In this document: one piece after another, positions 1 through 52,060 of the stretch
Layout of the letters: every line of letters starts with the position of its first letter
Position numbering within the stretch: the stretch's first letter is position 1
NCBI GenBank assembly: GCA_048500355.1
Contig: JASNYD010000004.1
Coordinates: forward strand, 128,001-192,000
Source: Kofleriaceae bacterium
GTDB taxonomy: Bacteria; Myxococcota_A; Polyangia; Haliangiales; Haliangiaceae
Direction of reading: 5' to 3'
DNA length: 64,000 nucleotides
Translations under genes and position numbers: made by a program
Notes under the pieces: generated by a model
Database searches by the model: none
Told to the model about the DNA's origin: nothing
The model's input: only the letters and a program-made list of their open reading frames with translations

Positions 1-204
1 CGGGCTCTCGCCCGCACGGCGCCCGCGCGCACGGTGCCTGTGCCGGGCGCTGGCGCCGACGCGCGCGTCACCTGGAGGTCTGCTGCGGCGGCGCTCGCGC
101 GCGAGCACCGCCCCGCGGGCGCCCGGCGGGCCGGTGCGCGCACGGCCGCGCTGGCGAGCCTGACCCCACCTGCGACGCGCGAGCAGCGTCGCCTGCGCCG
201 GCTG

Positions 205-1170
205 CGTACTGCTTCGGGCTGGCCTGCCCTTCGACACGTTTCTCGCCAGCTCGGGCCGCTAGGCCGACCGGAGAGATCACTCGCGCGACGGTGCCGCGGC
301 TCGTCGCTCGACACGCTCCTCGCTGGCGCTCGGGCGGCCTAGGCCGACCGGAGAGACATCACTCGCGCTGACGGTTGCGTGGCTCGTCGCTCCTGACACG
401 CCCTCGCTGGCGCTCGGGCGGCTCAGGCCGACCGGAGAGACATCACTCGCGCCACGAAAGTCGCGGCTCGTCGCCCTTCGACGCCCTCGCCGGCGCTCGG
501 GCCGCCCAGGCCGACCGGAGAAATCACTGCGCGATTTTGTCATGGCCTGTCGCTCCTGACACGCCCTCGCTGGCGCTCGGGCGGCCTAGGCCGACCGGAG
601 AGACACCACCGCGCATTGCGCTCGTCGGCTCTTTCGACACGCCTCGCTGGCGCTCTCGGGCCGCTCAGGCCGACCGGAGAGACATCACTGCGCGACGGCG
701 CCCCTCGCTGGCGCTCGGGCCGCTCAGGCCGACCGGAGAGACATCACCGCGCGGATTTGCCGTGTGGCTCTTCCGCGTTCTTTCGACACGCCCTCGCTGG
801 CGCTCTGGGCGGCCCCAGCCGACTGAGAGACACCACCGCGCGACGGCTGGCTCGTCGGCTTCTCGACACGCTCCTCGCTGGCGCTCGGGGCTGCCCAGGC
901 CGACCGGAGACATCACTCGCGCGATTTGGCTGCGGCTCGTCGCTCCTGACACGCCTCGCTGGCGCTCGCTTCGCCCAGCCGACCGGAGAGACATCACTCG
1001 CGCGACGGTTACTCGTCGCTCCTTCGACACGCTCCCTTCGCTGGTTTCGGACGGCCCAGGCCGACCGGAGAGACATCACTCGCGCGACGGCCGCGGCCTG
1101 TCGCCCTCTCGACACGCCCTGGCGCTCGGGCCGCTCAGCCGACCGGAGAGATTGCTCGCCGTTCGTTTCT
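205..1170. repeat. Degenerate tandem-repeat array, ~12 copies of an ~80-85 bp unit (conserved core ...CGCTGGCGCTCGGGCGGCCTAGGCCGACCGGAGAGACATCACTCGCGCGACGG..., short variable segment of 6-25 bp)
   Basis: Read directly: the motif AGGCCGACCGGAGAGA recurs at ~262, 345, 426, 509, 588, 668, 727, 817, 898, 977, 1058 and 1137. Unit length varies (59-90 bp) so no reading frame is conserved. Some units contain the palindrome GGCCTAGGCC. Confidence 0.8.
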
Positions 1171-1264
1171 GCGCGGCAATCTCTTAACGGCGGTCGGTGA
1201 AGAGCTCAGGGCGAGTGTGGAGAGGGCCGCGGTTGCGATCGGGGCGCACTCAGCCTCGCTCGCG

Positions 1265-1635
1265 CCTGCCCGATCTGACTCGGACTGGGTTCGATTCGAC
1301 TCGACTCGGACTCGTTCGGACTCGGACTCGACTCGGACTCCGACTCTGGTCTCGATTCCGGACTCGGACTCGGGTTCGGATTCGGACTCGGACTCGGACT
1401 CGGACTCGGACTCGGACTCGGACTCGGATTCGGGCTCGGACTCGGGCTCGGACTCGGGCTCGGGCTCGGGCTCGGACTCGGACTCGGACTCGGACTCGGA
1501 CTCGGACTCGGACTCGGGCTCGGATTCGGGCTCGGGCTCGGACTCGGGCTCGGGCTCGGACTCGGACTCGGGCTCGGACTCGGGCTCGGACTCGGACTCG
1601 GACTCGGACTCGGACTCGGATTCGGGCTCGGGCCA
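1265..1635. repeat. Hexanucleotide microsatellite (GACTCG/GGCTCG/GATTCG)n, ~60 units
   Basis: Visible run gactcggactcgggctcggactcg... It translates to (SD/SG)n on the plus strand and (ES/EP)n on the minus strand. It abuts the stop of the DUF4349 gene at 1638 but is not in frame with it. Confidence 0.85.
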
Positions 1636-1637
1636 GA

Positions 1638-2744
1638 TCAGAACGCGACCACGACGCCGGCGCCGGCGACCGCGGCGGCGTCGGACTCCTTGCCGACGAG
1701 GCCGGTGGCGCGCACGCTGGCGTCGACCACGACGTGGCGGTGCTTGACCAGCTCGACGCCGGCCTCGCCCTGGACCACGAAGCGCGAGCGATCGAGGTAG
1801 CCGTAGCCCAGGCGCAGGCCGAGGTACGGGTTGAGGAAGCGGCGGCGGCCGCCGCCCAGGAAGTCGGAGTAGGCCGCGCCGCCGAAGGTGGCCAGCATCG
1901 CCGCCGAGGCCTCGCCGCCGCCGGCGCCGGGCTCGGCCCGGTACAGGTCGACCTCGAGGCTGGCGGCGCGCATGACGGTGTGCAGCACCAGGCTGCCGCC
2001 CAGGCGGGTGCGCGGGCGACCGGCGGGATCGAGCAGGATGAGGCTGGTGGCGCGCACGCCGGGGTAGAACTTGGCGCGAGCGATCGTCACCGCGCCGTCG
2101 CGGCGGCGGAGCGCGATGTCGAGCGTGGCGAGGGCCACCCGGTCGCGCAGGAAGCGCTGCGCACCCTTGATCGCCTCGATCTCGCCGCGGATCCGCGTCA
2201 GCTCCTTCTCGATGGCGAGGACGTCGGCCATGACCAGGCCGGGCCCGGCCAGGATCGCCTGCAGGCGATCGCTGGTGGCCTGCAGGTTGGCGAGCGCCAG
2301 CTCCTGATCGAAGAGCGTGCGCGAGACGTCGGTGGCGTTGATGCGCTTGTCGAGGATGTCGCCCTTGCCGGCGAGCCAGGCCACCACGGCGTCGACCTGG
2401 TCCGGCGGCAGGCGCAGCCGGAGATCGGCGCGCCACGAGGTCTCGGCGCCCGAGACCTCCTCGGTGATGACCCGGCCGCCGCCCTGCTCGACCACGGCGC
2501 GCAGGCCGCTGATGAGGTCGGCGACCTCGCCGACCTCGACCGTGAGCGAGCCCTCGATCACGAGCTGCTCGGGGAGCTGGATCGCGGTCGGCTCCGCCGA
2601 GGCCACCAGCGCGGCCGGCGCGGCGGCGCCGGCGTAGGCGGCGGAGCGGTAGGCGGGGCCGGCGGCGCAGGCGACCAGCGGCGCGAGCCCGAGCACGGCG
2701 AGGAGGAGGACGGCGAGGCGGGGACGCGAGGCGGGGAGACGCAC
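1638..2744 (-). CDS. DUF4349-like lipoprotein (signal peptide LAPLVAC, coiled-coil middle)
   Basis: 368-aa ORF with protein-like composition. N-terminus has a lipobox (LGLAPLVAC). Coiled-coil segment [27 protein letters not shown], typical of the DUF4349 family as I recall it. Confidence 0.5.
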
Positions 2745-2774
2745 GCCCCTCCAACGGCGGCGGGGACCGCGGCC

Positions 2775-3362
2775 TTACACCCCGCGGCCCTCGGGATCCA
2801 GCTCGCGGGGGTCGACGAGGGCGGCCAGGAGATGATCGCGCCAGGCGCCGTTGATGAACAGATAGTCACGGGCGTAGCCGTAGACGGAGAACCCGGCCCG
2901 GCGCAGGACCCGCCCCGAGCGCTCGTTGCCCGGCATGTAGCTGGCCGAGATGCGGTGGAGGCGCTGCTCGGTGAACGCCCACGCGCAGGCCGCGCGCACC
3001 GCCTCGGTCATGATGCCCTTGCCCTGCTCGCGCTCGTCGAGGCCGTAGCCGAGGTTGGCCCACTGCTGCGCGCCGCGCGCGACGTCGGTGAGGCTCAGCA
3101 GGCCGAGCACGGGGCCGTGGGGCTCGTCGCGCCAGCGGATCGCGAAGCGAAAGGCGCGGCCGGCCTCGGCGTCGTCGAGGTTCCGCTTGCCCCGCGCCTC
3201 CCAGTAGGCCTCGGTCAGGTAGCCCTCGGGGTGCGGCGGCGACCAGCGCGCCAGGTGGACATCGTTGCGGACCACATGATCGCACAGCGACCAGGCCTGC
3301 TCGGGCCCGTACAGCACCATCCGGAGGCGCGCGCTCGTGATCTCGAGGCGTTGCGCGATCAC
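2775..3362 (-). CDS. GNAT family N-acetyltransferase (RimJ/RimL-like)
   Basis: C-terminal 180-195 aa of ORF 2775..4811: motifs LGYGLDEREQGKGIMTEAVRAACAWAF, RISASYMPGNERSGRVLRRAGF. Start is either GTG at 3362 (VIAQRLEITSARLRM...) or ATG at 3320. The upstream part of the long ORF is GC artefact. Confidence 0.7.
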   Translation of the reverse strand: MIAQRLEITSARLRMVLYGPEQAWSLCDHVVRNDVHLARWSPPHPEGYLTEAYWEARGKRNLDDAEAGRAFRFAIRWRDEPHGPVLGLLSLTDVARGAQQWANLGYGLDEREQGKGIMTEAVRAACAWAFTEQRLHRISASYMPGNERSGRVLRRAGFSVYGYARDYLFINGAWRDHLLAALVDPRELDPEGRGV

Positions 3363-3455
3363 CCCCGGACTATACGCAGCCCGCGCCGCGGTCCCCCCGG
3401 GACCGCACGACAAAAGGTCCAGACCGCGCGCCGCGCTCGTGCGTTGGCCGTCCTG

Positions 3456-5354
3456 ATGCGCGCGCTCTCCCTCGGCTCGGTGCTCGCCCTGACCTCGGCC
3501 GCGGTCCTCCTGGCGCCCGGCCCGTCCCACGCCCGCAAGTTCATCTTCCACGAGGACGAGGTCGCCCCGCCCAGCTTCGCCCTCGACGGCCCCGCCCTCG
3601 GCGCGCCGCGGCCACCGGCGGGCGCCGACGTCCGCGCGCCGGCCCACCTCGCCGGCGGCAGCCTGGCCGCGCTCGCCGACGGCGCGCTGGTGCTCGACGC
3701 CGACAGCGGCGAGCTGGTCCGGATCGACGCCCGCGGCGAGCCGGCGGCGCGGCTGGCGATCGCCCCCGACGCCGCGCAGCTCGTCGTCGACCGGCGCGCC
3801 GCCATCGCCTACGTCAGCGACCGCCGCGGCGACGGCGTGGTCGTGGTCGACGTCAGCGCGCCCGCGCCGCGGGTCCGCGCCCGCTGGCGGACGCCGGCCG
3901 AGCCCTTCGGCCTGGCCCTGTCCCCCGACGGCGCGACCCTCCTGGTCACCACCGTCGCCGACCGCACCCTGATCGCGTTCGACACCCGGGCCGGCGCCGA
4001 GCGCTGGCGGCGGCCGCTCGGGGCCGAGCCGCGCGGGGTCGCGATCTCGCCCGACGGCGCGCTCGCGCTCGTCACCTACCTGACCAGCGCCCACGTCGAC
4101 CGCATCGCCCTCGACCGCCCCGCCGACGCGCCCCGCCACGCCGTCGCGCTCGGCACCGGCCGCGTCACCACCGTCGCCGCCCGCCCCGACGCCATCGACG
4201 CCGCCACCGGCGGCCACCGTCACCCGCGCGCCGCCTTCGCCGCCCGCTTCGTCGGCAACCGGGTCGCGATCGTGCCCCACCAGGTGTCGACGCCGCTGCA
4301 GGAGACCGGCGGGCGCGAGAACGTCGGCTCGTACGGCGGCGGCTTCGAGCCGCCGATCCACCACGCCCTGACCTTCCTCGCCGCCGGCGACGCCGAGGTG
4401 CCGCGGACGGTGGCCGCCCAGATCGCGATCCACCAGCCGCGGGCGCTGGCCTGGGACCCGGCGCGCGATCGGCTGGCGGTCGCCGGCTTCGGCTCCGACT
4501 CGCTCCTGGTCCTCGACGCCGCGTCGCAGGCCGGCGTCCACCACGTCGCCGACGCCGCCCTCGCCGACCGCACCTGCGGCCCGGCCGGCCTCGCCTTCGC
4601 CGACGACGGCGCGCTGCTGGTGTGGTGCGCGGTGTCGCGCCGGACCGCGCGGGTGACGGTGGCGGCGCGGACCGCGGCGCAGGTGAGCTGGGGGCCGGTG
4701 CTCACGGCGACGCGGCTGTCGCCGCTCGAGCACGCCGGCGCCGACCTGTTCCGCCGGGGCAACGACTTCCGGATGTCGTCGCGGGGCGCGATGGCCTGCT
4801 CGAGCTGTCATCCCGAGGGCCGCACCGACGGCCTGTCATGGCGCATCGAGGGCCACACCCTGCAGACGCCGATCCTGGCCGGCCGCATCGCCGACACCCA
4901 CCCCTACAAGTGGGACGGCGGCGACGCCGACCTCACGATCAGCCTGACCTCGACCATGCGCCGCCTCGGCGGCGGCGGCCTGCGCAAGGACGAGGTCAAG
5001 GCCCTGGCCGCCTTCGTCGAGCGCGCGCCACCGCCGCGGGCCCCCACCCGCGACCCGGCCCGGGTCGCGCGCGGCCGGACGCTGTACGACTCGCCCGAGC
5101 TCGGCTGCGCCACCTGCCACGGCGGCGCCCGCCTGACCGATCGCCAGCGCCATCCCCTGGCCAGCGACCTCGCCGCCGTCGACACGCCGTCGCTGATCGG
5201 CCTGGCCGCCAGCGCGCCCTACTACCACGACGGCAGCGCCGCCACCCTCGAGGCCCTGCTCGCCGACCGCGGTCTGGTCCACGGCATGGCCGACCTCGGC
5301 GACCTCACCGCCACCCAGCTCGCCGACCTCGTCGCCTACCTCGAGACGCTGTAG
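3456..5354 (+). CDS. Secreted beta-propeller (YVTN-type repeats) fused to a di-haem c-type cytochrome domain (cytochrome c peroxidase/MauG-like)
   Basis: In frame with the giant ORF 1197..5354, but a real start is at 3456 (MRALSLGSVLALTSAAVLLAPGPSHA signal peptide). Repeated xSPDGxxLxVT propeller blades. Two CXXCH haem motifs (CSSCHPEGRTDG and CATCHGGARLTD). Confidence 0.7.
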   Translation: MRALSLGSVLALTSAAVLLAPGPSHARKFIFHEDEVAPPSFALDGPALGAPRPPAGADVRAPAHLAGGSLAALADGALVLDADSGELVRIDARGEPAARLAIAPDAAQLVVDRRAAIAYVSDRRGDGVVVVDVSAPAPRVRARWRTPAEPFGLALSPDGATLLVTTVADRTLIAFDTRAGAERWRRPLGAEPRGVAISPDGALALVTYLTSAHVDRIALDRPADAPRHAVALGTGRVTTVAARPDAIDAATGGHRHPRAAFAARFVGNRVAIVPHQVSTPLQETGGRENVGSYGGGFEPPIHHALTFLAAGDAEVPRTVAAQIAIHQPRALAWDPARDRLAVAGFGSDSLLVLDAASQAGVHHVADAALADRTCGPAGLAFADDGALLVWCAVSRRTARVTVAARTAAQVSWGPVLTATRLSPLEHAGADLFRRGNDFRMSSRGAMACSSCHPEGRTDGLSWRIEGHTLQTPILAGRIADTHPYKWDGGDADLTISLTSTMRRLGGGGLRKDEVKALAAFVERAPPPRAPTRDPARVARGRTLYDSPELGCATCHGGARLTDRQRHPLASDLAAVDTPSLIGLAASAPYYHDGSAATLEALLADRGLVHGMADLGDLTATQLADLVAYLETL

Positions 5355-5412
5355 CGAGACGCCATCGCCCGCGGGAGGCCCCGCCCGCGCGGCGCGACGC
5401 CGCCAGCCCACG

Positions 5413-6231
5413 TCAGACGAAGAAGTCCGGGACCAGGGTCGCGCTGGGGTCGACCGCGTACTCCGACAGGTCGGTCTTGCCGACCGAGGCCAGGACCTCG
5501 TCGTCGACGAAGAAGTTGCCGGTGCACTCGCGCGACGGCCTCGTCAGGATCACGTGCGCGGCGTCGCCCATGATCTCGGGCTTGCGCGAGCCACGGACGA
5601 TCTGGTCGCCGCCGAGCAGGTTCTTGACCGCGGCGGTGGCGATCGTCGAGCGCGGCCACAGCGCGTTGAACGCGATGCCGTCCTTGCGGAACTCCTCGGC
5701 CATGCCGAGGACGCACATGCTCATGCCGAACTTGGCCATGGTGTAGGCGACGTGGGGTGCGAACCAGCGCGCCTCCATGTTGAGCGGCGGCGACAGGTTG
5801 AGGACGTGGGGGTTGGCGGCCTGCTTGAGGTGGGGCACGCACAGCGCCGAGCACACGAACGTGCCGCGGGTGTTGATGCCGTGCATGAGGTCGTAGCGCT
5901 TCATCGGCGTCGCCGTGGTGCCGGTGAGGTGGATCGCGCTGGCGTTGTTGACCAGGACGTCGATGCCGCCGAAGGTCTCGACCGTCTTCGCCACCGCCGC
6001 CGCGACCTGGTCCTCGAAGCGGATGTCGGTGATGAGCGGCAGAGCCTTGCCGCCGGCGGCCTCGATCTCCTTGGCCGCGGTGTAGACCGTGCCCGGCAGC
6101 CGCGGGTCGGGCTCGGCGGTCTTGGCCACGATCGCGACGTTGGCGCCGTCGCGGGCGGCGCGCAGGGCGATGGCCAGGCCGATGCCCCGGCTGGCGCCGG
6201 TGATGAACAGGGTCTTTCCTTGCAGCGACAT
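5413..6231 (-). CDS. SDR family NAD(P)-dependent oxidoreductase (HSDL2-like)
   Basis: TGASRGIGLAIA Rossmann motif, NNAS, catalytic YTMAK. 272 aa. Confidence 0.85.
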   Translation of the reverse strand: MSLQGKTLFITGASRGIGLAIALRAARDGANVAIVAKTAEPDPRLPGTVYTAAKEIEAAGGKALPLITDIRFEDQVAAAVAKTVETFGGIDVLVNNASAIHLTGTTATPMKRYDLMHGINTRGTFVCSALCVPHLKQAANPHVLNLSPPLNMEARWFAPHVAYTMAKFGMSMCVLGMAEEFRKDGIAFNALWPRSTIATAAVKNLLGGDQIVRGSRKPEIMGDAAHVILTRPSRECTGNFFVDDEVLASVGKTDLSEYAVDPSATLVPDFFV

Positions 6232-6307
6232 CTCGGTTCCTTTGTGCCGTGGTCGTGGCGATGCGGGCGGAGGGGACGGACGGGACGGACGGACGGACGA
6301 CGGACGA

Positions 6308-6946
6308 TCAGGCGCCCGGCGGGACGTCGGACAGCCCGTCCCAGTACGGATCGCGGACCTCGGCGTAGGCCTTGGCCAGCATCTGCGAGCCGGCGAGGCC
6401 GGCGATCACGCCCACCCCGTAGAGGAAGAACGGCCAGCCCACGCCGCCGCCCACGATCCCGTTGGGGATCGAGCCCAGGAAGACGCAGCCGCACACCAGC
6501 GACAGCGTCAGCGCCAGGAGCGCCACCGTGGTCAGCGGGATGGGCGTACGGATGAAGCGGTCCTTGAAGGCGAGGACGCCGGCTCCGATCAGCGCGCCGG
6601 CGGCGATCACCGCGAAGAAGATCGTGGCGATGCCGGCGTAGGCGAAGGTGCCGAGGATCTTGTCGGGGATCTTGCGCGCCATCCGCCGGTCGTCGGGATC
6701 GGACATGTCGACCCAGAGGCGAGCGCGCTCGACCTGGGCGTTGTAGTCGTCGATGATGTCGAGGTTGGCCTTGCGCTCGCCGCCGCCCTCGACGAAGAGC
6801 AGGCTGATGCCGGCGTCGGCGCCCCGCGGCGCCCGCACCCAGCGCATGCCGAGGCAGGGCAGGAGCACGATCACGGCCGCGACCAGGCACACGACGCGGG
6901 CCGTCTTCTTGCGCTGGGCGGTGAGCGCGTCGGGATCGGTGTTCAT
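6308..6946 (-). CDS. Hypothetical membrane protein (1 N-terminal TM + soluble domain + 3 C-terminal TMs)
   Basis: C-terminal 213 aa of ORF 6308..9169, starting at MNTDPDALTAQRKKTARVVCLVAAVIVLL. Hydrophobic segments, real-looking composition. The rest of the 953-aa ORF is artefact overlapping the AAA gene in another frame. Confidence 0.55.
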   Translation of the reverse strand: MNTDPDALTAQRKKTARVVCLVAAVIVLLPCLGMRWVRAPRGADAGISLLFVEGGGERKANLDIIDDYNAQVERARLWVDMSDPDDRRMARKIPDKILGTFAYAGIATIFFAVIAAGALIGAGVLAFKDRFIRTPIPLTTVALLALTLSLVCGCVFLGSIPNGIVGGGVGWPFFLYGVGVIAGLAGSQMLAKAYAEVRDPYWDGLSDVPPGA

Positions 6947-6969
6947 GGCCGGCGACTCTGACCCGGGGT

Positions 6970-9083
<2,114 letters not shown>

Positions 9084-9087
<4 letters not shown>

Positions 9088-9923
9088 CCGCCGCCCTTGT
9101 CGTCGGGATCCCAGACCGTCGAACGGCGCGGACGCGCGTCGCCGGGGTCGCCGGCGTCGCCCGCGTCACCGCCGGTGCCGCCGCCGCCCGCCGCCGCCTT
9201 GCCCCCCGCGGTCGCGCCCGCGCCGCTCGCCGGCGCGCCGGCGTCGGCGGCCGGCGCCTTGCGCTTGAAGACCCGCCGCCACAGCTTCTCCTGCTTGATG
9301 CTGGGCTGGTCCTTCGGCTCCGTCGGCTCCGTCGCCTCCGTCGCCTCGCCGGCGCCCGGCTCGCCCGCGCCGGCCTCGTCGCCCTGATCGTCGTCGTCCT
9401 GGTCGCCCTCGGCCGCCTGCTCCTCGGACTCCAGGAACAGCTCCTCCTCGGCCTCCTCCAGGCTCACCAGCTCGCGGCGCAGCCGCTCGACGCCGTCGAC
9501 GACCTGGGCCAGGCTCTCCGCCACCCCCGCGATGCCGCCGACCTGGAGCAGCGGCTGCAGGTCGGCCAGCACCAGGTTGAGGTGGTGCAGGCGCTGCTCG
9601 GCGTAGATGAACTGGCCCTCGGGGGTCCGACCCTCGATCGCCGCCTCGAGGAACGCCAGCGCCTCGCGCTCGTGATCGGTGAGGACGTCGAGCCGCGCGT
9701 CGTCGACCACGGTCTGGGCCAGGAGGTCGCGCACGACCTCGACCACCGCCACCCGGCGCACCAGCTCGAGCTCGGCGAGCACCGACACCGCGACCTCCTC
9801 CTCGACCTCCTCCTCGACCTCCTCCTCCTCGGTCTGGTCCTGGGCGAGCTGGCCGACGACGTGCTCGGCGTCCTGGGCCTCGTCCTCGTCGCGCTCGGGG
9901 ACGAACTCCTCGTCGGCCCGCAT
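9084..9923 (-). CDS. Highly acidic coiled-coil hypothetical protein (E/D-rich, Gly/Ala-rich basic tail)
   Basis: 279-aa ORF. Runs EEEEVEEEVEEEV and DQDDDDQGDE. Tightly coupled to the AAA ATPase downstream and the small Cys-rich gene upstream (4-bp gap). Confidence 0.5.
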
Positions 9924-9927
9924 CGCG

Positions 9928-10164
9928 CTACTCGATCTTCTCCCACCACTGGCACCACCACTGGGCTCCGACCAGGATGCGCAGCTTGGGGTGCCAGCAG
10001 TAGGCGAGCTTGGCCTCGGGCTCGAGGTAGTACAGGCAGTTGTCGCACCGCTCCTCGCCGTAGGGCACGCCCTTGAGGACGTTGTCCTCGATCATGTGGC
10101 GCAGCTCCAGCGCCTTCTTCTCGTCGATCTCCTTGGGCTCGGGCTTGGGCAGGTCGTCGGCCAT
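9928..10164 (-). CDS. Small Trp/Cys-rich protein (78 aa; CDNC...YCWH...WWCQWW), possible zinc-ribbon-like
   Basis: Composition (K, E, I, N, W, Y) is clearly unlike the GC-artefact ORFs. Four Cys arranged as CxxC-(18)-C-(14)-C. GGTGGAG Shine-Dalgarno-like sequence upstream. Confidence 0.6.
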   Translation of the reverse strand: MADDLPKPEPKEIDEKKALELRHMIEDNVLKGVPYGEERCDNCLYYLEPEAKLAYCWHPKLRILVGAQWWCQWWEKIE

Positions 10165-10176
10165 GGCCGGTCGAGT

Positions 10177-11448
10177 CTACTCCACCTCGATGCGGTAGAC
10201 GCGGCCGCTGGCCACCGACGTCACGTACAGCTCGCCGAAGCCATCGAGGCCGAAGCTCGACAGGCCCTGGTAGAGCAGGTCGTCGGGATCGAGGTCGCTG
10301 GTGCGATCGACCCGGTCGACCGCCTGGCCGCCGACCACGCGCAGGGTGTGGACCCGGCCCGAGCAGTAGTCGCCGTAGAAGTAGTGCCCGGCCAGATCCG
10401 GCATGCAGGTGCCGTGATAGACGTGGCCGCCGATCACCGAGCAGTCGCCGTTGGTGCGCCGATCGATCGCCACCAGGGGCGCCACGTAGTCGCCGGGCCG
10501 GTCGCAGTTGAGGTTGCCGTCGGGGTCGGCGGTGAAGCAGTCGGGGCCCTCGAACACGCTCCAGCCGAAGTTGCGGGCGGCGGCGGCGGCGCCCGCCGGC
10601 AGGTAGTCGACCTCCTCGTACGCGCCCTGGCCGACGTCGCCCATGTAGAGGTCGCCGGTGGCGGGGTCGATCGAGATCCGCCACGGGTTGCGCAGGCCCC
10701 AGGCGTACATCTCGGGGACGCCGCCGCCGCTCGCCCACGGGTTGGAGGGCGGCACCGCGTACGGCGGCGCGCCGTCGACGTCGATGCGCAGCACCTTGGC
10801 CATCAGGCTCTGCGGGTTCTGGCCGTGCTCGAAGAAGTCGTTGGCCGAGCCGCCGTCGCCGACCGAGATGTAGAGCAGGCCGTCGGCGCCGAAGGTCACG
10901 GTGCCGCCGTTGTGGTTGTCCTGGTTCTGGCGGCGGGGGATGGTCAAGACCACCCGCTCGGTCGGGCTGGCGGTGTCGGCGGTCGGGGTGGCGGTGAACT
11001 CGGAGACCACGACGTCGCCGTGCGGATCCGAGGTGTAGAAGACGAAGAAGCGCCCGTTCTGGGCGAAGCCGGGGTGGAAGGCCAGGCCCAGCAGGCCCTG
11101 CTCGCTGCCGACGGCGTTGACCTTGCTCGTGAGGTCGAGGTAGGGCGTGGGCAGCAGGTTGCCCTCGCGGACCACGCGCACGCGCCCGATCTGCTCGAGG
11201 ACGAACAGGCGGGCGTCGCCGCCGGGCGCCGCGACCCCGACCGCGCGGTTGAGCCCGCTGGCGATGAGCGTCAGCTTCAGGTTGGTGCCGCTGGTCGGCG
11301 TGCAGTAGGGCGCCGGCGCGGCGTCGATCCCACCGCCCCCGTCGCCGCTCCCCCCGCCGTCGCCGTTGCCGTTGCCGTTGCCGCCGCAGGCCGCGGCCAG
11401 CGCCGCCACCACCGCGAGGGAGCCACCGGGGAGCCCGATCCTGGTCAT
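10177..11448 (-). CDS. PQQ-dependent sugar dehydrogenase (soluble glucose/sorbosone dehydrogenase family) lipoprotein, copy 1
   Basis: Lipobox AALAAACGG. Six-bladed-propeller family motifs GLLGLAFHP, HNGGTVTFGADGLLYISVGDGG, WAWGLRNPWRISIDPATGDLYMGDVGQ. Confidence 0.85.
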   Translation of the reverse strand: MTRIGLPGGSLAVVAALAAACGGNGNGNGDGGGSGDGGGGIDAAPAPYCTPTSGTNLKLTLIASGLNRAVGVAAPGGDARLFVLEQIGRVRVVREGNLLPTPYLDLTSKVNAVGSEQGLLGLAFHPGFAQNGRFFVFYTSDPHGDVVVSEFTATPTADTASPTERVVLTIPRRQNQDNHNGGTVTFGADGLLYISVGDGGSANDFFEHGQNPQSLMAKVLRIDVDGAPPYAVPPSNPWASGGGVPEMYAWGLRNPWRISIDPATGDLYMGDVGQGAYEEVDYLPAGAAAAARNFGWSVFEGPDCFTADPDGNLNCDRPGDYVAPLVAIDRRTNGDCSVIGGHVYHGTCMPDLAGHYFYGDYCSGRVHTLRVVGGQAVDRVDRTSDLDPDDLLYQGLSSFGLDGFGELYVTSVASGRVYRIEVE

Positions 11449-11545
11449 GATCGGCGGACTCTACCACCGGCGCGGGGCGCGGACCGCGACCGCGCTCACG
11501 CGGCGCCGCGGCTCGGCGGCCGGCGGCGAGGGGCTCGGCCGCCGA

Positions 11546-12763
11546 TCAGGGCAGCTCGAGGCGGTAGACGCGGCCGGTGCCGATCGCGGTCGCGTACAGC
11601 TCGCCGTGGCCGTCGGTGCCGAGGCTCGACAGGTTGCCGGCGAGGACGCCGTCGAGCTCGTAGGTGTGGTGCGCGACCACGGTCTCGTCGACGACGCGCA
11701 CCGCCTTGATGACGCCGTTGCAGAAGTCGCCGAACAGGTAGCTCCCGACCAGGTCGGGCATGCACCCGCCGCGGTAGACGTGGCCGCCGATCACCGCGCA
11801 GCCGCTGTCGATGCGGCGGTCGATCGCGATGAGCGGCGGCGTCAGCTCCACCTCGTCCCCGCACTCGCCGCCGCCGGGCTCGCCGCCGCCGAGCTCGGGG
11901 TTGAAGCACTCCGGCCCCTCGAACGTGGCCCAGCCGAAGTTGCGGCCGCCGTGCCCGGCCGGCACCAGGTTGATCTCCTCGAAACGGTTCTGGCCGACGT
12001 CGCCGATGTAGAGATCGCCGGTGGCCGGGTCGACCGAGATCCGCCACGGGTTGCGCAGGCCCCAGGCGTAGACCTCGGGCGCGCCGCCGCCGTGGGCCCA
12101 CGGGTTGTCGGGCGGGATGGCGTACGGCGAGCCGCCGTCGACGTCGAGGCGGAGGACCTTGGCCAGGAGGCTGTCCGGGCTCTGGCCGTTGCCGAACACG
12201 TCGGGCGGCACCGCGCTCGAGCCGTCACCGATCGACACGTAGAGGTACCCGTCGGGGCCGAACACCACCGAGCCGCCGTTGTGGATGTCGGGGTTGAGCT
12301 GGCGATCGATGCGGAGGAGCTCGCGCTCGCTCGGGTAGGCGACGTCGGCGGTGGGGTCGGCGACCAGCTCGGAGATGACGTTGTCGCCGTGGGGCTCCGC
12401 GGTGTAGTGGATGACGAAGCGCCCGGTACGGGCGAAGTCGGGGTGGAAGGCCAGGCCGAGCAGCCCCTGCTCGGGGCCGACCGCGATCACGTGATCGGAC
12501 AGGTCGAGGTACGGGGTGGGCAGGAGCACCCCGTCCTTCACCACCCGGATGCGGCCGAGCTGCTCGAGCACGAACAGGCGGTCATCGCCGCGCGGCGCCG
12601 CCACCCCCAGCGGGCGGTTGAGGCCGACGGCGACCCGGGTGAGGGTGAGCTCGGTCCCGGGCCGGGGCGAGCAGAACGGCGCGTGGTCCGTGCCGGGCGC
12701 GGGCGGGTCGCCGCACGCCGCGAGCGCGGTGACGCCCGCCATCCACAGCAAGCCAGGCTTCAT
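11546..12763 (-). CDS. PQQ-dependent sugar dehydrogenase lipoprotein, copy 2 (paralog of 10177..11448)
   Basis: Same motif set (GLLGLAFHP, HNGGSVVFGPDGYLYVSIGDGS, WAWGLRNPWRISVDPATGDLYIGDVGQ). Probable start MKPGLLWMAGVTALAAC at 12763; the ORF extends to 12814. Confidence 0.85.
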   Translation of the reverse strand: MKPGLLWMAGVTALAACGDPPAPGTDHAPFCSPRPGTELTLTRVAVGLNRPLGVAAPRGDDRLFVLEQLGRIRVVKDGVLLPTPYLDLSDHVIAVGPEQGLLGLAFHPDFARTGRFVIHYTAEPHGDNVISELVADPTADVAYPSERELLRIDRQLNPDIHNGGSVVFGPDGYLYVSIGDGSSAVPPDVFGNGQSPDSLLAKVLRLDVDGGSPYAIPPDNPWAHGGGAPEVYAWGLRNPWRISVDPATGDLYIGDVGQNRFEEINLVPAGHGGRNFGWATFEGPECFNPELGGGEPGGGECGDEVELTPPLIAIDRRIDSGCAVIGGHVYRGGCMPDLVGSYLFGDFCNGVIKAVRVVDETVVAHHTYELDGVLAGNLSSLGTDGHGELYATAIGTGRVYRLELP

Positions 12764-35928: not shown

Positions 35929-36600
35929 ATGCGCGTGGTCGCCCTCGCCGACACCCACCTCGCCCACGGTCCGGGCTACGCCGTGCCCGACGGCGACCTG
36001 CTGATCCACGCCGGCGACCTGTGCAACTGGGGCGACCTGGCCGAGCTCGAGCGGGCGGTCCGCTGGCTCGAGGCCCTGCCCCACCGCCACAAGGTCGTCA
36101 TCGCCGGGAACCACGACCGCGCCTGCCAGCTCCAGCCGCAGGAGGCGCGCGCGCTCCTGGGCGGCGTCATCTACCTCGAGGACGAGGGCGTCGAGCTCGC
36201 TGGCCTGCGCCTGTGGGGCAGCCCGTGGCAACCCGAGTTCTTCGCCTGGGCCTTCAACCTGCCGCGCGGCCCGGCGCTGGCGAAGGTGTGGGCGCGCATC
36301 CCGGTCGGCCTCGACATCCTCGTCACCCACGGCCCGCCCCACGGCACCGGTGATCGCACCGGCTGGAACGGCGACGCCCACGCCGGGTGCGAGGCCCTGC
36401 GCGACCGGCTGCCCGAGGTCGCGCCCCGCCTCCATCTCTTCGGCCACATCCACGAGGACGGCGGGCTGTGGCGCCTGGGCCGGACCGTCGTCGCCAACGT
36501 CACGACCGCGGAGTGCACGCGAGCGCCGACGGTGATCGACCTCGACGGCGACGAGCTCGTGCCGGTGGTGGTGCCGCCGTCGGGCCGGCGCGACGCCTGA
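35929..36600 (+). CDS. Metallophosphoesterase (calcineurin-like MPP superfamily)
   Basis: MRVVALADTHLAHG, GDL..., GNHD, THGPPHG, GHIHE motifs. 7 bp after the boxR stop. Confidence 0.85.
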   Translation: MRVVALADTHLAHGPGYAVPDGDLLIHAGDLCNWGDLAELERAVRWLEALPHRHKVVIAGNHDRACQLQPQEARALLGGVIYLEDEGVELAGLRLWGSPWQPEFFAWAFNLPRGPALAKVWARIPVGLDILVTHGPPHGTGDRTGWNGDAHAGCEALRDRLPEVAPRLHLFGHIHEDGGLWRLGRTVVANVTTAECTRAPTVIDLDGDELVPVVVPPSGRRDA

Positions 36601-36665
36601 GCTCGCGAGGCGGGGCGCGCGCGGTGGCAACCGTCGACCAGGTTGGCGGGGTATCGTCGCGCTCG

Positions 36666-39600
36666 ATGCGCCGCCGCCACTTGCTGCCCCGCCCCGGCGC
36701 CGCGATGCCACGGGTCGTCGGCGCGGTGGCGATCGTGGCCGCGCTGGGGGCGGCGGCGGCCTGCGGCGTGCCGGCGGCGCGCTTCCCCGCTGACGTGCAG
36801 GCCGCGCTCGCCGGCGCCGACATGCGGCGGATGGAGACCGCGCAGCTCCTCCTCTACTACCCCGAGGGCCGGCGGGCGCTGGCCGAGCGGATGGCGGCGC
36901 GGCTCGAGGGCTGCGCCACCGCGCTGCGGGCCCACGCCCGGCTCGACAACCGGGCGTCGCGCGAGAAGATGATCGTGGTCGTCCCCGACGCGCCGTTCAA
37001 CAACGCCTACGTGCTGCCGCCGGTGGCCGGGCTCGAGGACGTCGCGGTCGTGCCCGCCGCCAACACCCTCGACTTCACGACGTCCTTCGGCCTGCCGCCG
37101 GATCCGGGGATGGTCGGCTGTCACGAGCTGGTCCACTACGTCCACGCCAAGCAGATCGCCGGGCTGTGGGGCGCGCTGCGGGTCGCGTTCGGCGAGCTGG
37201 TCTCACCCCAGGTCGGCCTCGACGCCTGGTTCTTCGAGGGGCTGGCCACCTACTACGAGGCGCGGCTGGTCCCCGGGGTCGGCCGCCCGCGGTGGCCGGT
37301 GTTCACGAGCATGTTCCACGCCGCCTACGCCGGCGGCGAGCTCGGCGGCGGCGACCTGGCGACCGAGCACCGGCGGGCCTGGGTCGGCCACCACTACCTG
37401 GTCGGCACGATGTTCGTCGAGTACCTGGCCGAGACCTACGGCGAGGCCCCGCTGTGGCGGGTGATCGAGCTGCAGGCGCGCTCGACCTCGATCCTGTTCT
37501 CGGTGAGCGGCCGCTTCGCCGAGGTCTACGGCAAGGGCCTGCCGGCGCTCGTCGGCGACTTCCAGCGCTGGGTCGCCGCGCGCTACCCGGTGCGGCGACG
37601 ACCGCCGGGGCAGCGCGTGGTGCAGGCGCTGGGCGAGGACGCGCGCTGGGCGTGGGGGCCGGCCGGCGAGGTGGCGGTGATCGACGGCGACCTCGACCTG
37701 CCGGCGCGGCTGCGGGTGTGGGACGGCGCCGGCCGCCTGCTCGACGAGCGCGCGCTGGTCGACCTGGTGCCGCCGCGCCGTCAGGTGATGGCGGCGCCGC
37801 TCCTGGTCTCCGGCCTGGGCTTCGCCGCCGACGGCAGCCTGTGGTTCACCAGCGTCGATCAGGGCGCGACCTACCAGACGACGCGGCTCTTCCGCTGGCG
37901 CCGCGGCGGCGGGCTCGCCGAGGTGGCCCGCGACCTCGGGCCCGGCGGCGCGATCGCGCCCGACGGCGCGAGCTACGTCCACATGGTCGTCGACGGCGAT
38001 CGGTGGAGCCTGGCCGCGCGCGACCTGGCCACGGGCGCGCGGCGGGTGCTGTGGGAGGCGGCGCCCGGCCAGTACGCCCTGCGCGCCGGGTTCGCGCGCG
38101 ACGGCGCGCGGCTGGCGGTGAGCGTGTGGGACGGCGCGCGCTTCGCGGTGTGGGAGCTCGACGCCACCACCGGCGCCCGGCTGGCGACGCACACCGGCGA
38201 CGGGGACACCCCGGTCTTCGACGGCGCCTACACCGACGACGGCCGGCTCGTCCTGCTGGCGGTGGTGGACGGCCGCTTCCAGGTGGCGGTGGCCGGCGCC
38301 GGCGGCGCGCGCCGCGTGGTGAGCGACGCCCCCTACGGCGCGCTCGAGGTCCGCGCCCGCGGCGGCGCGCTGCGCTTCCTGGCCCGCGACGGCTGGCGCT
38401 ACACCCTGGACGAGCTCGCGCTGCCGGGGCCGGAGACCGAAGCCGAGACCGAGGCCGGAGCTGGAGCCGGTTCCGGACCCGAACCCGAACCCGGATCCGA
38501 GCCCGAACCCGGATCCGGATCCGGATCCGAGCCCGAGCCCGAGCCCGAGCCCGAACCCGAACCCGAACCCGAACCCGGATCCGAACCCGAATCCGGATCC
38601 GGATCCGAGCCCGAACCCGGATCCGTCCCCGAGACCGACCCCGGATCCGGCCCCGAACCCGGATCCGTCCCCGAGACCGACCCCGGATCCGTCCCCGAAC
38701 CCGGATCCGTCCCCGAGACCGACCCCGGATCCGGATCCGCCCCCGCCCTCGCCCCCGCCCCGGTCCGCGTCCTCGACGATCGCCCCTACTCGCGCCTCGA
38801 CGGCCTCCTCCGCCCCACCCTGCACACCCTCGCCCTCCTCGCCCCCGCCGTCGGCGTGAACCAGGTCGGCCTCGCCCTCGCCGGCGGGGACCGCCTCGAC
38901 CTGGTGCGCTGGGCGGTGGCCGGCTACGTCGACCCAGGCGATCGCAAGCTCTCCGGCGCCGGCGGCGTCATCCTCAACGACCTCGCGCCGTGGGTGCTGG
39001 TCGCCCACGGGCAGCGCCTCCACTTCACCGAGGAGGTCCGCGACGACGACGGCGCCCTGATCGCCGCGTACGAGCGCGAGGTGCGCGACGCCGTGCTCGC
39101 CCTCGGCCGCACCTGGCGCGGGACCTACGGCGTCGCCGCCGGCGGCGCGTACGCCCTCGATCGCGTCGACGCCACGACCCTCCGGCTGTACGGACCGGAG
39201 CTCACGCTCGGCTACGCCGCGATCGAGCCCACGCGGGCCAGCGGCCCGCGCCGCGGCCTGGCGCTGAGCGCCGGCGGCGCGTGGTTCCCGCGACCCGCCG
39301 GTGACCTGCAGGAGCTCCGCGGCCGGCTCGACGTGTACGCGCCGGTGGTGGGGACCCGCCGCCACGTCGTCCACGCGACGCTGCGCGGCCACGCCGTCGG
39401 CGGCGCGCCCGGGCCGCTGATCGCGATCGGCGGCGAGGCCGCGCTGCCGGCGCTGTGGTCGAGCGGCGACGCGCCGGCGGAGCTCGGGCTCGGCGACGGC
39501 GTCCTGCCCCGGCAGCGTCGCTTCGGCGAGCCGCTGCGTGGCTTCGAGGATCTGCCGGTCGCCGCCGCGCGCGTGGCCCTCGCCGACCTCACCTGGCGCT

Positions 39601-39866
39601 ACCCGCTGATCGTCGACCGCGGCGTGCCCAGCCTCGGCTTCCTGCCGGCGTCGTTCCTGTCCGAGCTCGAGGTCGAGGTCTTCGCCGCCGGCGCCCTCGT
39701 CGAGCCCGCGGCGGCGCGGACGCGGCACCTGCTCGCCGCCGGCGGCGCGCTCACCGTGCGCCTGTCGCTGTTCCGCCTGCCGCTGGCCCTCCGTTATCAG
39801 GCCAGCCGCCGCCTCACCGACGACCGCGGCTACCTCCAGCTCGTCATGCTCGGCCCGCGGTCGTGA
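36666..39866 (+). CDS. Large secreted multidomain protein: N-terminal HEXXH (HELVH) putative zinc-metallopeptidase-like domain, TolB/WD-like beta-propeller region, (EP/GS)n acidic linker, C-terminal beta-rich domain
   Basis: Start MRRRHLLPRP... with lipobox AALGAAAACG. GCHELVHYVHAKQ. Propeller-like repeats (DGSLWFTS, PDGASYVHMVVDGDRW). Low-complexity 38440-38760. Upstream part of ORF 36387..39866 is artefact. Confidence 0.7.
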   Translation: MRRRHLLPRPGAAMPRVVGAVAIVAALGAAAACGVPAARFPADVQAALAGADMRRMETAQLLLYYPEGRRALAERMAARLEGCATALRAHARLDNRASREKMIVVVPDAPFNNAYVLPPVAGLEDVAVVPAANTLDFTTSFGLPPDPGMVGCHELVHYVHAKQIAGLWGALRVAFGELVSPQVGLDAWFFEGLATYYEARLVPGVGRPRWPVFTSMFHAAYAGGELGGGDLATEHRRAWVGHHYLVGTMFVEYLAETYGEAPLWRVIELQARSTSILFSVSGRFAEVYGKGLPALVGDFQRWVAARYPVRRRPPGQRVVQALGEDARWAWGPAGEVAVIDGDLDLPARLRVWDGAGRLLDERALVDLVPPRRQVMAAPLLVSGLGFAADGSLWFTSVDQGATYQTTRLFRWRRGGGLAEVARDLGPGGAIAPDGASYVHMVVDGDRWSLAARDLATGARRVLWEAAPGQYALRAGFARDGARLAVSVWDGARFAVWELDATTGARLATHTGDGDTPVFDGAYTDDGRLVLLAVVDGRFQVAVAGAGGARRVVSDAPYGALEVRARGGALRFLARDGWRYTLDELALPGPETEAETEAGAGAGSGPEPEPGSEPEPGSGSGSEPEPEPEPEPEPEPEPGSEPESGSGSEPEPGSVPETDPGSGPEPGSVPETDPGSVPEPGSVPETDPGSGSAPALAPAPVRVLDDRPYSRLDGLLRPTLHTLALLAPAVGVNQVGLALAGGDRLDLVRWAVAGYVDPGDRKLSGAGGVILNDLAPWVLVAHGQRLHFTEEVRDDDGALIAAYEREVRDAVLALGRTWRGTYGVAAGGAYALDRVDATTLRLYGPELTLGYAAIEPTRASGPRRGLALSAGGAWFPRPAGDLQELRGRLDVYAPVVGTRRHVVHATLRGHAVGGAPGPLIAIGGEAALPALWSSGDAPAELGLGDGVLPRQRRFGEPLRGFEDLPVAAARVALADLTWRYPLIVDRGVPSLGFLPASFLSELEVEVFAAGALVEPAAARTRHLLAAGGALTVRLSLFRLPLALRYQASRRLTDDRGYLQLVMLGPRS
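38440..38760 (+). repeat. In-frame hexanucleotide tract (GAGCCC/GAACCC/GGATCC)n encoding an EPEPEP/GSEPES linker
   Basis: Visible nucleotide periodicity. Same repeat class as the intergenic microsatellite at 1265-1635. Confidence 0.8.
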
Positions 39867-51235: not shown

Positions 51236-52060
51236 GTGATCGTGGCGAAGACCGAGTCCACGGCTGTCACCCGCCTCATCGAGCTGGCGCAGCAGCGGCC
51301 GGTCGCCGTCGACCTCGACTGGTTCCAGCCGCCGCGACCGCGCCGGCTGCCGCGCGAGGAGGTGACCCAGGTCGTGCGCGTCGCACGGCGGGTCGTCGCC
51401 TCGCCCGCCGCCGTCCTCGGCGCCTTCGTCGCCGGCATGCTCACGGTCGCGATCACGACGCTGGTGGTGCGCACCAGCCCGCCGCCCACGCCCGCCCCGG
51501 CGCTCACCGCCGCGCCCGCCACCGTCGTCGAGCCCGCGCTCGCATCCGCCTCCGCCGTCGAGCTCTCCCCGACGACCGTGGTCGCCCCCGCCCCCGATCC
51601 CGCCCCCGCCGTCGCGCCCGCCTCCGATCCCGATCCCGATCCCGCCCCCGCGATCGTCGTCACCCCCGATCCCGTGACCGTCGTCGCCTCCGCGCCCGCG
51701 GCCTCCGCCCCCGCGGCTCCCGCCCGCGCCCCCGCGCCCCGCGCCCCGCCGACCCCCGCCGCCGAGCCCCGCCCCACCCGCCGGGCCGCCGCCATCTCCG
51801 GGCGTCCCCGCCCCCGCCCGCCGGCCGCGGCGCCGACCAGCCCCGGGCTGGCCGAGCTGCGCATCAACAGCAAGCCGCCGTGCGAGCTCTACGTCGACGG
51901 CCGCCGCATCGGCTGGACCCCGCAGCGCGGGATCGCGGTGGCGCCCGGCCGCCGCACGATCGTCTTCCGCAACCGCGAGCACGGCGTCGAGCGCAAGGTC
52001 CTGGTCGACGTCGAGGCCGGCCAGGTCCACCGCCTCATCCGCGACTTCACCGAGCCCTGA
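51236..52060 (+). CDS. Hypothetical membrane-anchored protein with Pro/Ala/Asp-rich linker and C-terminal PEGA-like domain
   Basis: GTG start VIVAKTE. TM LGAFVAGMLTVAITTLVV, DPDPDPAPA low complexity. C-terminal LRINSKPPCELYVDGRRIGWTPQRGIAVAPGRRTIVFRNREHGVERKVLVDV. Confidence 0.5.
   Translation: MIVAKTESTAVTRLIELAQQRPVAVDLDWFQPPRPRRLPREEVTQVVRVARRVVASPAAVLGAFVAGMLTVAITTLVVRTSPPPTPAPALTAAPATVVEPALASASAVELSPTTVVAPAPDPAPAVAPASDPDPDPAPAIVVTPDPVTVVASAPAASAPAAPARAPAPRAPPTPAAEPRPTRRAAAISGRPRPRPPAAAPTSPGLAELRINSKPPCELYVDGRRIGWTPQRGIAVAPGRRTIVFRNREHGVERKVLVDVEAGQVHRLIRDFTEP

Follow-up and report, generated by a model that had tools for sequence, protein, structure and literature searches.

A tandem array downstream of a DUF4349 lipoprotein gene

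The stretch of DNA analysed here (hereafter the window) comprises 64,000 nucleotides of contig JASNYD010000004.1 from Kofleriaceae bacterium (GenBank assembly GCA_048500355.1, positions 128,001 to 192,000 of the forward strand). Close to its left end lies a tandem array of ~1 kb (window positions 205-1205) with 12 head-to-tail cores, followed by a hexanucleotide microsatellite and, on the minus strand, by a gene for a DUF4349 lipoprotein (Table 1). We found that the array belongs to a previously undescribed, modular family of interspersed repeats in a narrow clade of uncultured myxobacteria of high GC (guanine plus cytosine) content. The array is very probably a non-coding cluster of a truncated unit of this lineage-specific mosaic repeat, which was amplified locally and is now decaying.

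A fuzzy search of the whole 64 kb for GCCGACCGGAGAGA-like anchors returned exactly 12 copies in the array and none outside it on either strand. The anchors are separated by 80, 84, 83, 80, 79, 59, 90, 81, 79, 82 and 78 bp, i.e., mostly by 78-84 bp with outliers of 59 and 90 bp, and Tandem Repeats Finder (TRF) reported periods of 80-84 and 161-163 with scores of 378-583 for arrays over 249-1151. The copy number of 12, the unit range of 59-90 bp and the start coordinate given in a preliminary description of the locus were thus borne out. The same description placed the array at 205-1170, which located it rightly, but the array in fact extends to ~1205, since its last unit is a whole hairpin module of the terminal type. 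We also counted seven matches of a 24-base gapped core pattern in the array, against 0.00 expected from shuffles, and an nhmmer match (232-309) falls on the first core.

Each unit begins with the 3' part of a module that we call A (CATCACTCGCGCGACGG..GCGGCTCGTCGC), continues with module B (CTTCGACACGCCCTCGCTGGCGCTCGGGCGG) and ends with the 5' part of module C (CTCAGGCCGACCGGAGAGA). Unit 6 carries an internal deletion of 20 nt, and unit 7 an insertion of ~10 nt. In the alignment of the units, degenerate conservation spans the whole unit, and a layout of repeats with unique spacers is absent. The preliminary description had divided the units into a conserved core and variable inserts. The core is indeed conserved, but the inserts turned out to be degenerate remains of a conserved module, which reads GACGGCCGCGGCTTGTCGGC in other genomes. 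The mean pairwise identity of the units is 68%, and the longest exact repeat inside the array is 41 nt. The GC content of the array is 70.5% versus 75.5% for the window; window 1-204, to the left of the array, reaches 84% GC and displays codon-position periodicity in no frame.

The array closes in the same manner as canonical sites of the family, with a full C module and then the right-end motif GCTCAGGGCGA. The terminal C of the window is alignable with 53 C copies from other loci. A hairpin of 59 nt (1139-1197), with CCGACCGGAGAGATTGC as its 5' arm (1139-1155) and GCAATCTCTTAACGGCGGTCGG as its 3' arm (1176-1197), is predicted to fold with -41.6 kcal/mol (z = -2.5 on the plus strand and -3.4 on the minus strand). 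At most complete sites of the other loci, the GCTCAGGGCGAnCGGgGgAG end likewise stands 3' of the last C.

Dispersed copies in other genomes

We scanned 185,579 genomes, one genome per species, for the core pattern CTCGCTGGCGCTC-N8-22-CCGACCGGAGA, and obtained 40 loci, all of which belong to a single metagenome-assembled genome (MAG), 'uncultured delta proteobacterium isolate PRO4'. The matches in PRO4 occur on both strands, many of them at contig ends. The core pattern was also present in 10 contigs of the metagenome assemblies JAANMY, JAANMU and JAANMT. These dispersed copies, for which the preliminary description had proposed to search, were decisive: its guess of a minisatellite or an element like the repetitive extragenic palindromic (REP) sequences was in the right neighbourhood, but an array with relatives elsewhere is not a private minisatellite. 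The JAANMY assembly also encodes a protein identical to one from the window. The coding DNA of PRO4 is only ~70% identical to that of the window, indicating that PRO4 represents another species and that the repeat family is common to different species.

The comparisons below are based on 55 element sites in PRO4 and the metagenome contigs (the family total is 55 or more). Copies of the element had no match in viral contigs or in the plasmids of PLSDB, and we thus ruled out a phage or plasmid origin. In the full-text literature we found no description of small interspersed mosaic repeats in Myxococcota, and nothing relevant was retrieved for myxobacterial interspersed repeats or for the accession numbers.

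Modules, their order and their palindromes

The modules were defined by reading the loci and by scanning with module hidden Markov models (HMMs). Module A (~62 nt) reads CTCCTGACGAACGGCGCCGGCAAGCGCCCGACATCACTCGCGCGACGGCCGCGGCTTGTCGGC, module B (~31 nt) corresponds to the central part of the window unit, and module C (~68 nt) reads CTCAGGCCGACCGGAGAGATnnGCTCGCCGTTCGTTTCCCGCnATCTCCGACCGCGGTCGGTGAAGGG. At 55 of the 55 sites the modules share one orientation and a fixed order that can be written [A][B]([A B])n[C]m; as many as six tandem copies of C occur. The amplified unit can be AB, C, BC' or ABC. Local periods of 48 bp correspond to B with the 5' part of C, those of 68 bp to C, those of 93 bp to AB and those of 163 bp to ABC; a period of 118 bp was also seen.

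An imperfect palindrome of ~48 nt spans B in full, with the last 8 nt of A before it and the first 8 nt of C after it. In this core palindrome, GTCGGCCT..CGCCC..GGGCG..AGGCCGAC, 17 pairs are invariant across 27 complete ABC copies. The sequence before the core is GCGGCTT|GTCGGCC, and the GTAG tetranucleotide is absent. Module A is a distant inverted homologue of the 5' half of C, which makes ABC a fold-back element (folding z = -1.7 and -1.9). Module C harbours, in addition, a perfect 14-nt palindrome, CCGACCGCGGTCGG, which is nearly invariant in the family and has decayed to TTAACGGCGGTCGG in the C copy of the window. Elsewhere in the window, CCGACCGCGGTCGG matched 10 times at <=2 mismatches versus 6.1 expected, which is not above chance. 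The motif GCCGACCGG is invariant in 54 of the 54 aligned C copies and is kept by 11 of the 12 window units. A different palindrome, GGCCTAGGCC, had been put forward in the preliminary description as a recognition site; it occurs in only two of the 12 units (331-350 and 578-597) and departs from the family consensus GGCTCAGGCC, and such a role is therefore unlikely.

Two smaller variations were noticed at the borders of module A. The heptamer TGTCGGC at its 3' end is present in one to six copies depending on the site (L038 600-650, L022 4340-4365, L043 and L040). A fourth small recurrent module, GGAGCGAAGCCCCGAAGGGGCGGAGTCGAAGGGGC, with a GCCCC/GGGGC hairpin, is located inside or beside hexamer arrays and, in one orientation or the other, adjoins the 5' end of module A; it was seen at L043 (~640-700), L045 (~60-120), L017 (~4590-4640), L041 and L042.

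Origin and decay of the window unit

The window unit is collinear with a contiguous segment of the PRO4 and JAANMY contigs, namely the final 32 nt of A, the complete B and the initial 19 nt of C. If 80 nt (the 3' part of C plus the 5' part of the A that follows) are removed from the 163-nt ABC, ~83 nt are left, which agrees with the spacing of 78-84 bp. The corresponding junction, GGAGAGA|CATCAC, recurs in most window units and was found at none of the other 55 loci. As the junction is private to the window, the hybrid unit appears to have arisen locally and then been amplified. The window units are 76% identical to the copies in other genomes, and those other copies are 95% identical among themselves. 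Combined with the 68% identity among the window units, these values form the pattern of an old local amplification, the copies of which decayed independently from a consensus-like ancestor.

We propose that, in the genome of the window, a deletion or unequal exchange fused two modules and brought the first 19 nt of a C next to the last 32 nt of the A that follows. The 80-84-nt hybrid unit would then have multiplied 11-fold, probably by slipped-strand mispairing or unequal recombination between direct repeats, and the copies would have diverged since. The same process may account for the change of module number at homologous loci elsewhere. L018 is BABC, L043 is BABCABCC (flank 93.7% identical) and L044 is BABCC (86%); such differences represent the expansion and contraction typical of variable number tandem repeat (VNTR) loci. 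Dispersal between loci, on the other hand, may have occurred as a non-autonomous fold-back element mobilised in trans, in the manner of miniature inverted-repeat transposable elements (MITEs) or of REP doublets forming hairpins (REPINs).

Placement at gene ends

The 3' end of the DUF4349 gene (codon-position GC 0.79/0.51/0.97) faces the array; like most sites of the family, the array is thus situated downstream of a gene end. Homologues of this gene product at 70-73% identity carry the source label Kofleriaceae bacterium, which puts the window in this family of Myxococcota or close to it. In a species with a 72%-identical protein, neither the array nor the hexamers are present downstream of the gene; the window array is thus lineage-specific rather than a conserved functional site.

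In the comparison set, the element overlaps by more than 60 nt with an open reading frame (ORF) validated by GC at the third codon position (GC3) at only four of the 55 sites, and it typically starts 0-100 nt past the stop codon of the upstream gene. The sites for which both flanks could be called (n = 20) comprise seven convergent, 11 tandem (four sense and seven antisense) and two divergent gene pairs. This lack of orientation bias favours an element acting at the DNA level over a strand-specific RNA.

The 68 flanking ORFs match 76 Pfam families, and recurrence was observed only where two assemblies share one locus. No transposase is among the 25 of these 76 families that are listed. An associated transposase or other recurrent neighbour gene is thus not indicated by the listed families. 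Two contigs with elements at both ends contain housekeeping genes only (rluA-like and S9 peptidase genes in one, thiE and uvrB in the other). The preliminary description had considered that the core might prove to be part of an insertion sequence or a repeat adjacent to tRNA or rRNA genes; the listed flanking families and the absence of tRNA genes from window 1-12000 speak against this idea.

At ~8 sites (the right ends of L022, L007, L013, L008, L014, L023, L019 and L037), the TGA stop codon of the convergent gene, often together with its last Pro codon (CCC TGA), falls inside the terminal GCTCAGGGCG / GCTCAGG. Either the element may thus insert over the ends of genes and provide their stop codons, or sequences of this type may be its targets.

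Another site of note is L040 (PRO4 contig CAADGB010000024.1; orthologous to L050), where an ABABABCCC element on the minus strand (4668-5129) lies between cas2 (4222-4511) and the leader of a genuine CRISPR array (at least 34 repeats, from ~5533). The CRISPR repeat, GTCTCCGCCGACGACGGTCGGCGGCCACGTTGAAGC, has a spacing of 71-76; it bears no relation to the element and does not occur in the window. Judging from its position, the element was inserted into the region between cas2 and the leader.

Table 1. Features at the left end of the window (window coordinates).
Feature	Position	Strand	Basis or remark
Anchors (12)	264, 344, 428, 511, 591, 670, 729, 819, 900, 979, 1061, 1139		Fuzzy search
Leading degenerate first core	205..276	+	Remnant of A 3' end, B, first 19 nt of C; ends CCGACCGGAGAGA
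Eleven head-to-tail units	277..1151	+	TRF, module HMM matches, alignment to other loci
Bounds of units 1-6	277-356, 357-440, 441-523, 524-603, 604-682, 683-741	+	
Bounds of units 7-11	742-831, 832-912, 913-991, 992-1073, 1074-1151	+	
Complete terminal module C	1134..1204	+	HMM match 1137-1202, model positions 4-66
Family-typical right end CTCAGGGCGAGTGTGGAGAG	1205..1224	+	Start of another C, degenerate and truncated
Hexanucleotide microsatellite (GACTCG/GGCTCG) x 56	1298..1631	.	TRF period 6, 56.2 copies, score 454
DUF4349 lipoprotein gene	1638..2744	-	Pfam PF14257, E = 1.6e-34

Coding potential and RNA structure

The GC content at the three codon positions of the array is flat (0.68-0.72), and stops appeared in all six frames. 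We therefore regard the array as non-coding and a coding repeat as ruled out, in agreement with the preliminary description, which had judged that the array was not a protein repeat. The long ORFs across it are consequently spurious; frames of this kind are found at 375-1187 (+; 270 aa), 616-1200 (+), 665-1030 (-), 744-1115 (-), 1135-2754 (-) and 1217-1747 (+). Long frames run through the repeat and hexamer arrays because stops are rare at 70-75% GC. Annotators need to be aware of such frames (e.g., 375-1187), as gene callers may report them as hypothetical proteins with Arg-rich or DS/SE-repeat sequences.

The units fold no better than shuffled sequence on both strands (z of +0.54 to -0.82). 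The consensus structure of module C is weak (-7.6 kcal/mol), and RNAalifold detected no compensatory pairs in 54 C copies or 27 ABC copies. No match to Rfam 15 at the gathering threshold was found in the whole window, and four element-rich loci searched against Rfam at E <= 1 gave one chance-level match only. Neither promoter-like nor terminator-like sites were found in the array; scanned for sigma-70-like promoters and for terminators, window 1-3000 holds one unrelated site only.

Three further candidates were rejected or set aside. First, GAGAT/ATCTC covarying with GAGCT/AGCTC was ruled out, as many copies mix both forms. Second, TGGCGC-N5-CGGCT in module B resembles a sigma-54 -24/-12 element, but is devoid of the conserved T of the -12 TGC, with G or C among the window units. 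Third, integron attC sites were rejected, as the inverted GACGAAC...GTTCGTY motifs have only the AAC/GTT triplets in common with the core sites of attC, and no cassettes are present between the units.

Comparison with known repeat families

Small interspersed mosaic repeats are well described in Escherichia coli, Pseudomonas, pneumococcus and mycobacteria. The family reported here is a new family of this known kind, which fails defining features of each of the BOX, BIME (bacterial interspersed mosaic element) and MIRU (mycobacterial interspersed repetitive unit) types. Its organisation is closest to that of the pneumococcal BOX elements, and its behaviour is like that of mycobacterial MIRU-VNTRs.

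BOX elements are composite intergenic elements (boxA-boxBn-boxC) at ~100 dispersed sites, in which the number of tandem modules varies between strains; they are non-coding, are predicted to fold back and are without a transposase of their own (PMC3049150). The fixed module order, the variable tandem number and the dispersed, intergenic and non-coding nature of the present family are all reminiscent of BOX in Streptococcus pneumoniae and S. suis. Nevertheless, any of AB, C, BC' and ABC can be amplified here, whereas only the central module is amplified in BOX. Further differences are that the window array amplifies a hybrid deletion derivative, and that hexamers accompany the element at ~1/5 of the sites. 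Homology in sequence between the two is implausible given their GC contents (75% versus 40%), and we claim a likeness in kind only.

REP/BIME elements and REPINs are known from Enterobacteria and Pseudomonas. The BIMEs of E. coli are mosaic clusters of palindromes with linker motifs, which are located preferentially after gene ends. REPINs occur in high copy number in one lineage, are missing from its relatives and have an extragenic palindromic core (PMC3116915, PMC3337134). The elements described here share with REP, BIME and REPIN sequences an extragenic core of imperfect palindromes, mosaic clusters, a placement at gene ends and a high copy number limited to a lineage. In contrast, their modules are direct, while those of REP/BIME alternate, and only A versus the 5' half of C is inverted; the core is ~48 nt rather than 20-40 nt, and the GTAG-type 5' tetranucleotide is lacking. 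In REPIN systems the repeats flank a single-copy, IS200/IS605-like Y1 transposase, the REP-associated tyrosine transposase (RAYT); the families listed for the flanking ORFs of the present elements include no transposase.

MIRUs, with units of 40-100 bp repeated directly in tandem, occupy tens of intergenic loci, vary in copy number between strains and have ends that abut or overlap the stop codons of flanking genes. They reside within operons, in a single orientation, and contain short ORFs with translational coupling. Direct tandem units at dispersed intergenic loci and a variable copy number are common to MIRU-VNTRs and the present family. The latter differs in possessing no ORFs, in a unit length that is no multiple of 3, and in its occurrence in both orientations at mostly convergent or tandem gene ends. 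With regard to MITEs, we observed the fold-back of A on the 5' half of C as well as ragged left ends, and duplicated flanking bases (i.e., a target-site duplication) were seen at none of the 27 complete sites.

Possible effects and alternative explanations

If the array is a decaying cluster of an interspersed repeat, the elements are probably neutral or selfish for the most part, with side effects at gene 3' ends, similar to those of REP and BOX, being possible. The most plausible role would be that of a passive intergenic filler, with the palindromic core and the C hairpin acting at the DNA level. Alternatively, the core and the terminal C may serve as hairpins at the 3' ends of mRNAs, like REP/BIME and BOX elements. 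Amplification would have proceeded by slippage or unequal recombination, and dispersal in trans as a non-autonomous element.

Several points weigh against this explanation. Because neither terminal inverted repeats with target-site duplications at the element ends nor a transposase was found, mobility is a property that we infer. The PRO4 copies are 95% similar, which leaves the covariation test with low power for a structural role of the core palindrome. The hybrid unit has been seen once, no other assembly extends across the array, so that its copy number rests on one assembly, and the counts of gene context depend on a crude, GC3-based ORF caller. Finally, the invariance of GCCGACCGG and CCGACCGCGGTCGG could reflect selection by a binding protein instead of recent spread.

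The last point leads to the alternative that survives best, although we consider it unlikely: the array may be a functional protein-binding array, i.e., an exapted binding or insulating site between genes for a nucleoid-associated, gyrase/IHF-like or lineage-specific protein. Each unit would then provide a half-site, CCGACCG(G), and the terminal C a full inverted pair. Such a role fits the near-complete conservation of GCCGACCGG in C copies and window units and the near invariance of CCGACCGCGGTCGG in C, and the lack of strand bias relative to transcription suits a function at the DNA level. By analogy, the BIMEs of E. coli bind IHF and gyrase. Nevertheless, CCGACCGCGGTCGG is not enriched in the rest of the window, its copy in the window C has decayed, the 68% identity of the units bespeaks drift and argues against strong constraint, and no candidate binding protein recurs among the flanking families listed.

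It is very unlikely that the array is an artefact of assembly, either a chimera or a collapse of reads from many dispersed copies. Some observations would suit such an origin: the family breaks assemblies, as seen from the many PRO4 matches at contig ends; the other contigs with the neighbouring gene all stop in the hexamer array; and the array begins <=205 nt from the window start. Nevertheless, the junction GGAGAGA|CATCAC, recurrent in the window and absent from the other loci, cannot have come from a stitching of canonical copies. Each unit is distinct, and exact repeats do not exceed 41 nt, so that the structure should be resolvable by ordinary reads; moreover, a normal terminal C and the usual right-end motif close the array. 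Thus, of the collapsed assembly that the preliminary description had considered, what stands is that the copy number could be affected, while the structure itself is unlikely to be an artefact.

Tandem small-RNA genes or cis-regulatory RNA units, similar to the NsiR1 or Qrr-type small-RNA repeats, are highly improbable. The head-to-tail layout, the conserved core and the strong hairpin at the 3' end of the array are what one would expect of them, and an amplified small RNA was among the initial proposals. This proposal has to be abandoned in the light of the folding z values of the units and the lack of promoters and terminators in the array, Rfam matches and compensatory pairs. In addition, the elements are found in both orientations relative to the neighbouring genes, and the bounds of the unit change by site, with periods from 48 to 163 bp.

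The array has a practically negligible chance of being CRISPR-like, with repeats and spacers in a degenerate or orphan state, despite the regular spacing of ~80 bp with a more variable segment between the cores and despite the L040 element, which adjoins Cas1 as an insertion between cas2 and an unrelated array: the 'spacers' show homology among themselves and with the A modules of dozens of loci, just as the preliminary description had dismissed a CRISPR on account of spacers that share sequence; the CRISPR repeat of L040 is a different sequence; and no cas gene is present in the adjacent 8 kb of a near-identical strain (GSDH, AAA, SDR, cytochrome c, acetyltransferase, DUF4349).

With a locally amplified and decaying interspersed repeat as the favoured explanation, the family accounts for the fragmentation of assemblies at particular intergenic sites in these uncultured, high-GC myxobacteria, and offers ready-made VNTR markers for strain typing in metagenomes. 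Its placement over convergent stop codons could affect the C-termini of proteins and the processing of 3' ends. Its unusual traits are the link to very long hexamer microsatellites and the diversity of periods that one set of modules yields; otherwise it is an ordinary selfish or neutral repeat and no new functional system.

Companion hexanucleotide microsatellites

The non-coding hexamer array of the window measures 334 bp, and 7 nt separate its end from the stop codon of the DUF4349 gene, which is convergent. In the family, CCGAGN arrays of 61-750 bp exist within 200 bp of 12 of the 55 sites, with 10 of the 12 located on the downstream side of the last C. At the same place, a strain that shares 98% identity in the DUF4349 protein carries a hexamer array of another composition (L056 9108-9337), and short-read contigs (at least 18) of the same or the 98%-identical strain all stop inside the hexamer array. 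To our knowledge, a physical link of mosaic repeats to very long hexanucleotide microsatellites is rare in bacteria.

The short and long tandemly repeated repetitive sequences (STRR/LTRR) of cyanobacteria are intergenic arrays of a 6-7-nt unit in tens of copies, at many loci of one lineage. They are the closest analogue of the adjacent hexamer arrays, from which they differ in that the unit here is CCGAGN (or TGTCGGC in module A), and that the arrays extend up to 750 bp and are tied to a larger mosaic element.

It is tempting to speculate, although we regard this as rather unlikely, that the family and the microsatellites mark an unusually active, lineage-specific process of repeat generation, the elements being not passive but targeted to gene 3' ends by a dedicated enzyme or kept as binding or insulator arrays. 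The enzyme may be a single-strand transposase, such as a RAYT-like one, or a template-switching polymerase; the binding or insulator arrays would have CCGACCG as the target of a lineage-specific protein. This idea stems from the array periods, of which there are at least six, the heptamer in one to six copies, the hexamers of up to 750 bp by the terminal C, and the overlap with stop codons.

Hexamer-like or proline-rich tracts were also noticed at window 38467-38739 and 51583-51783. They are inside long ORFs of high GC3 (e.g., 36354-39866, GC3 0.92) and are coding low-complexity linkers, not intergenic microsatellites.

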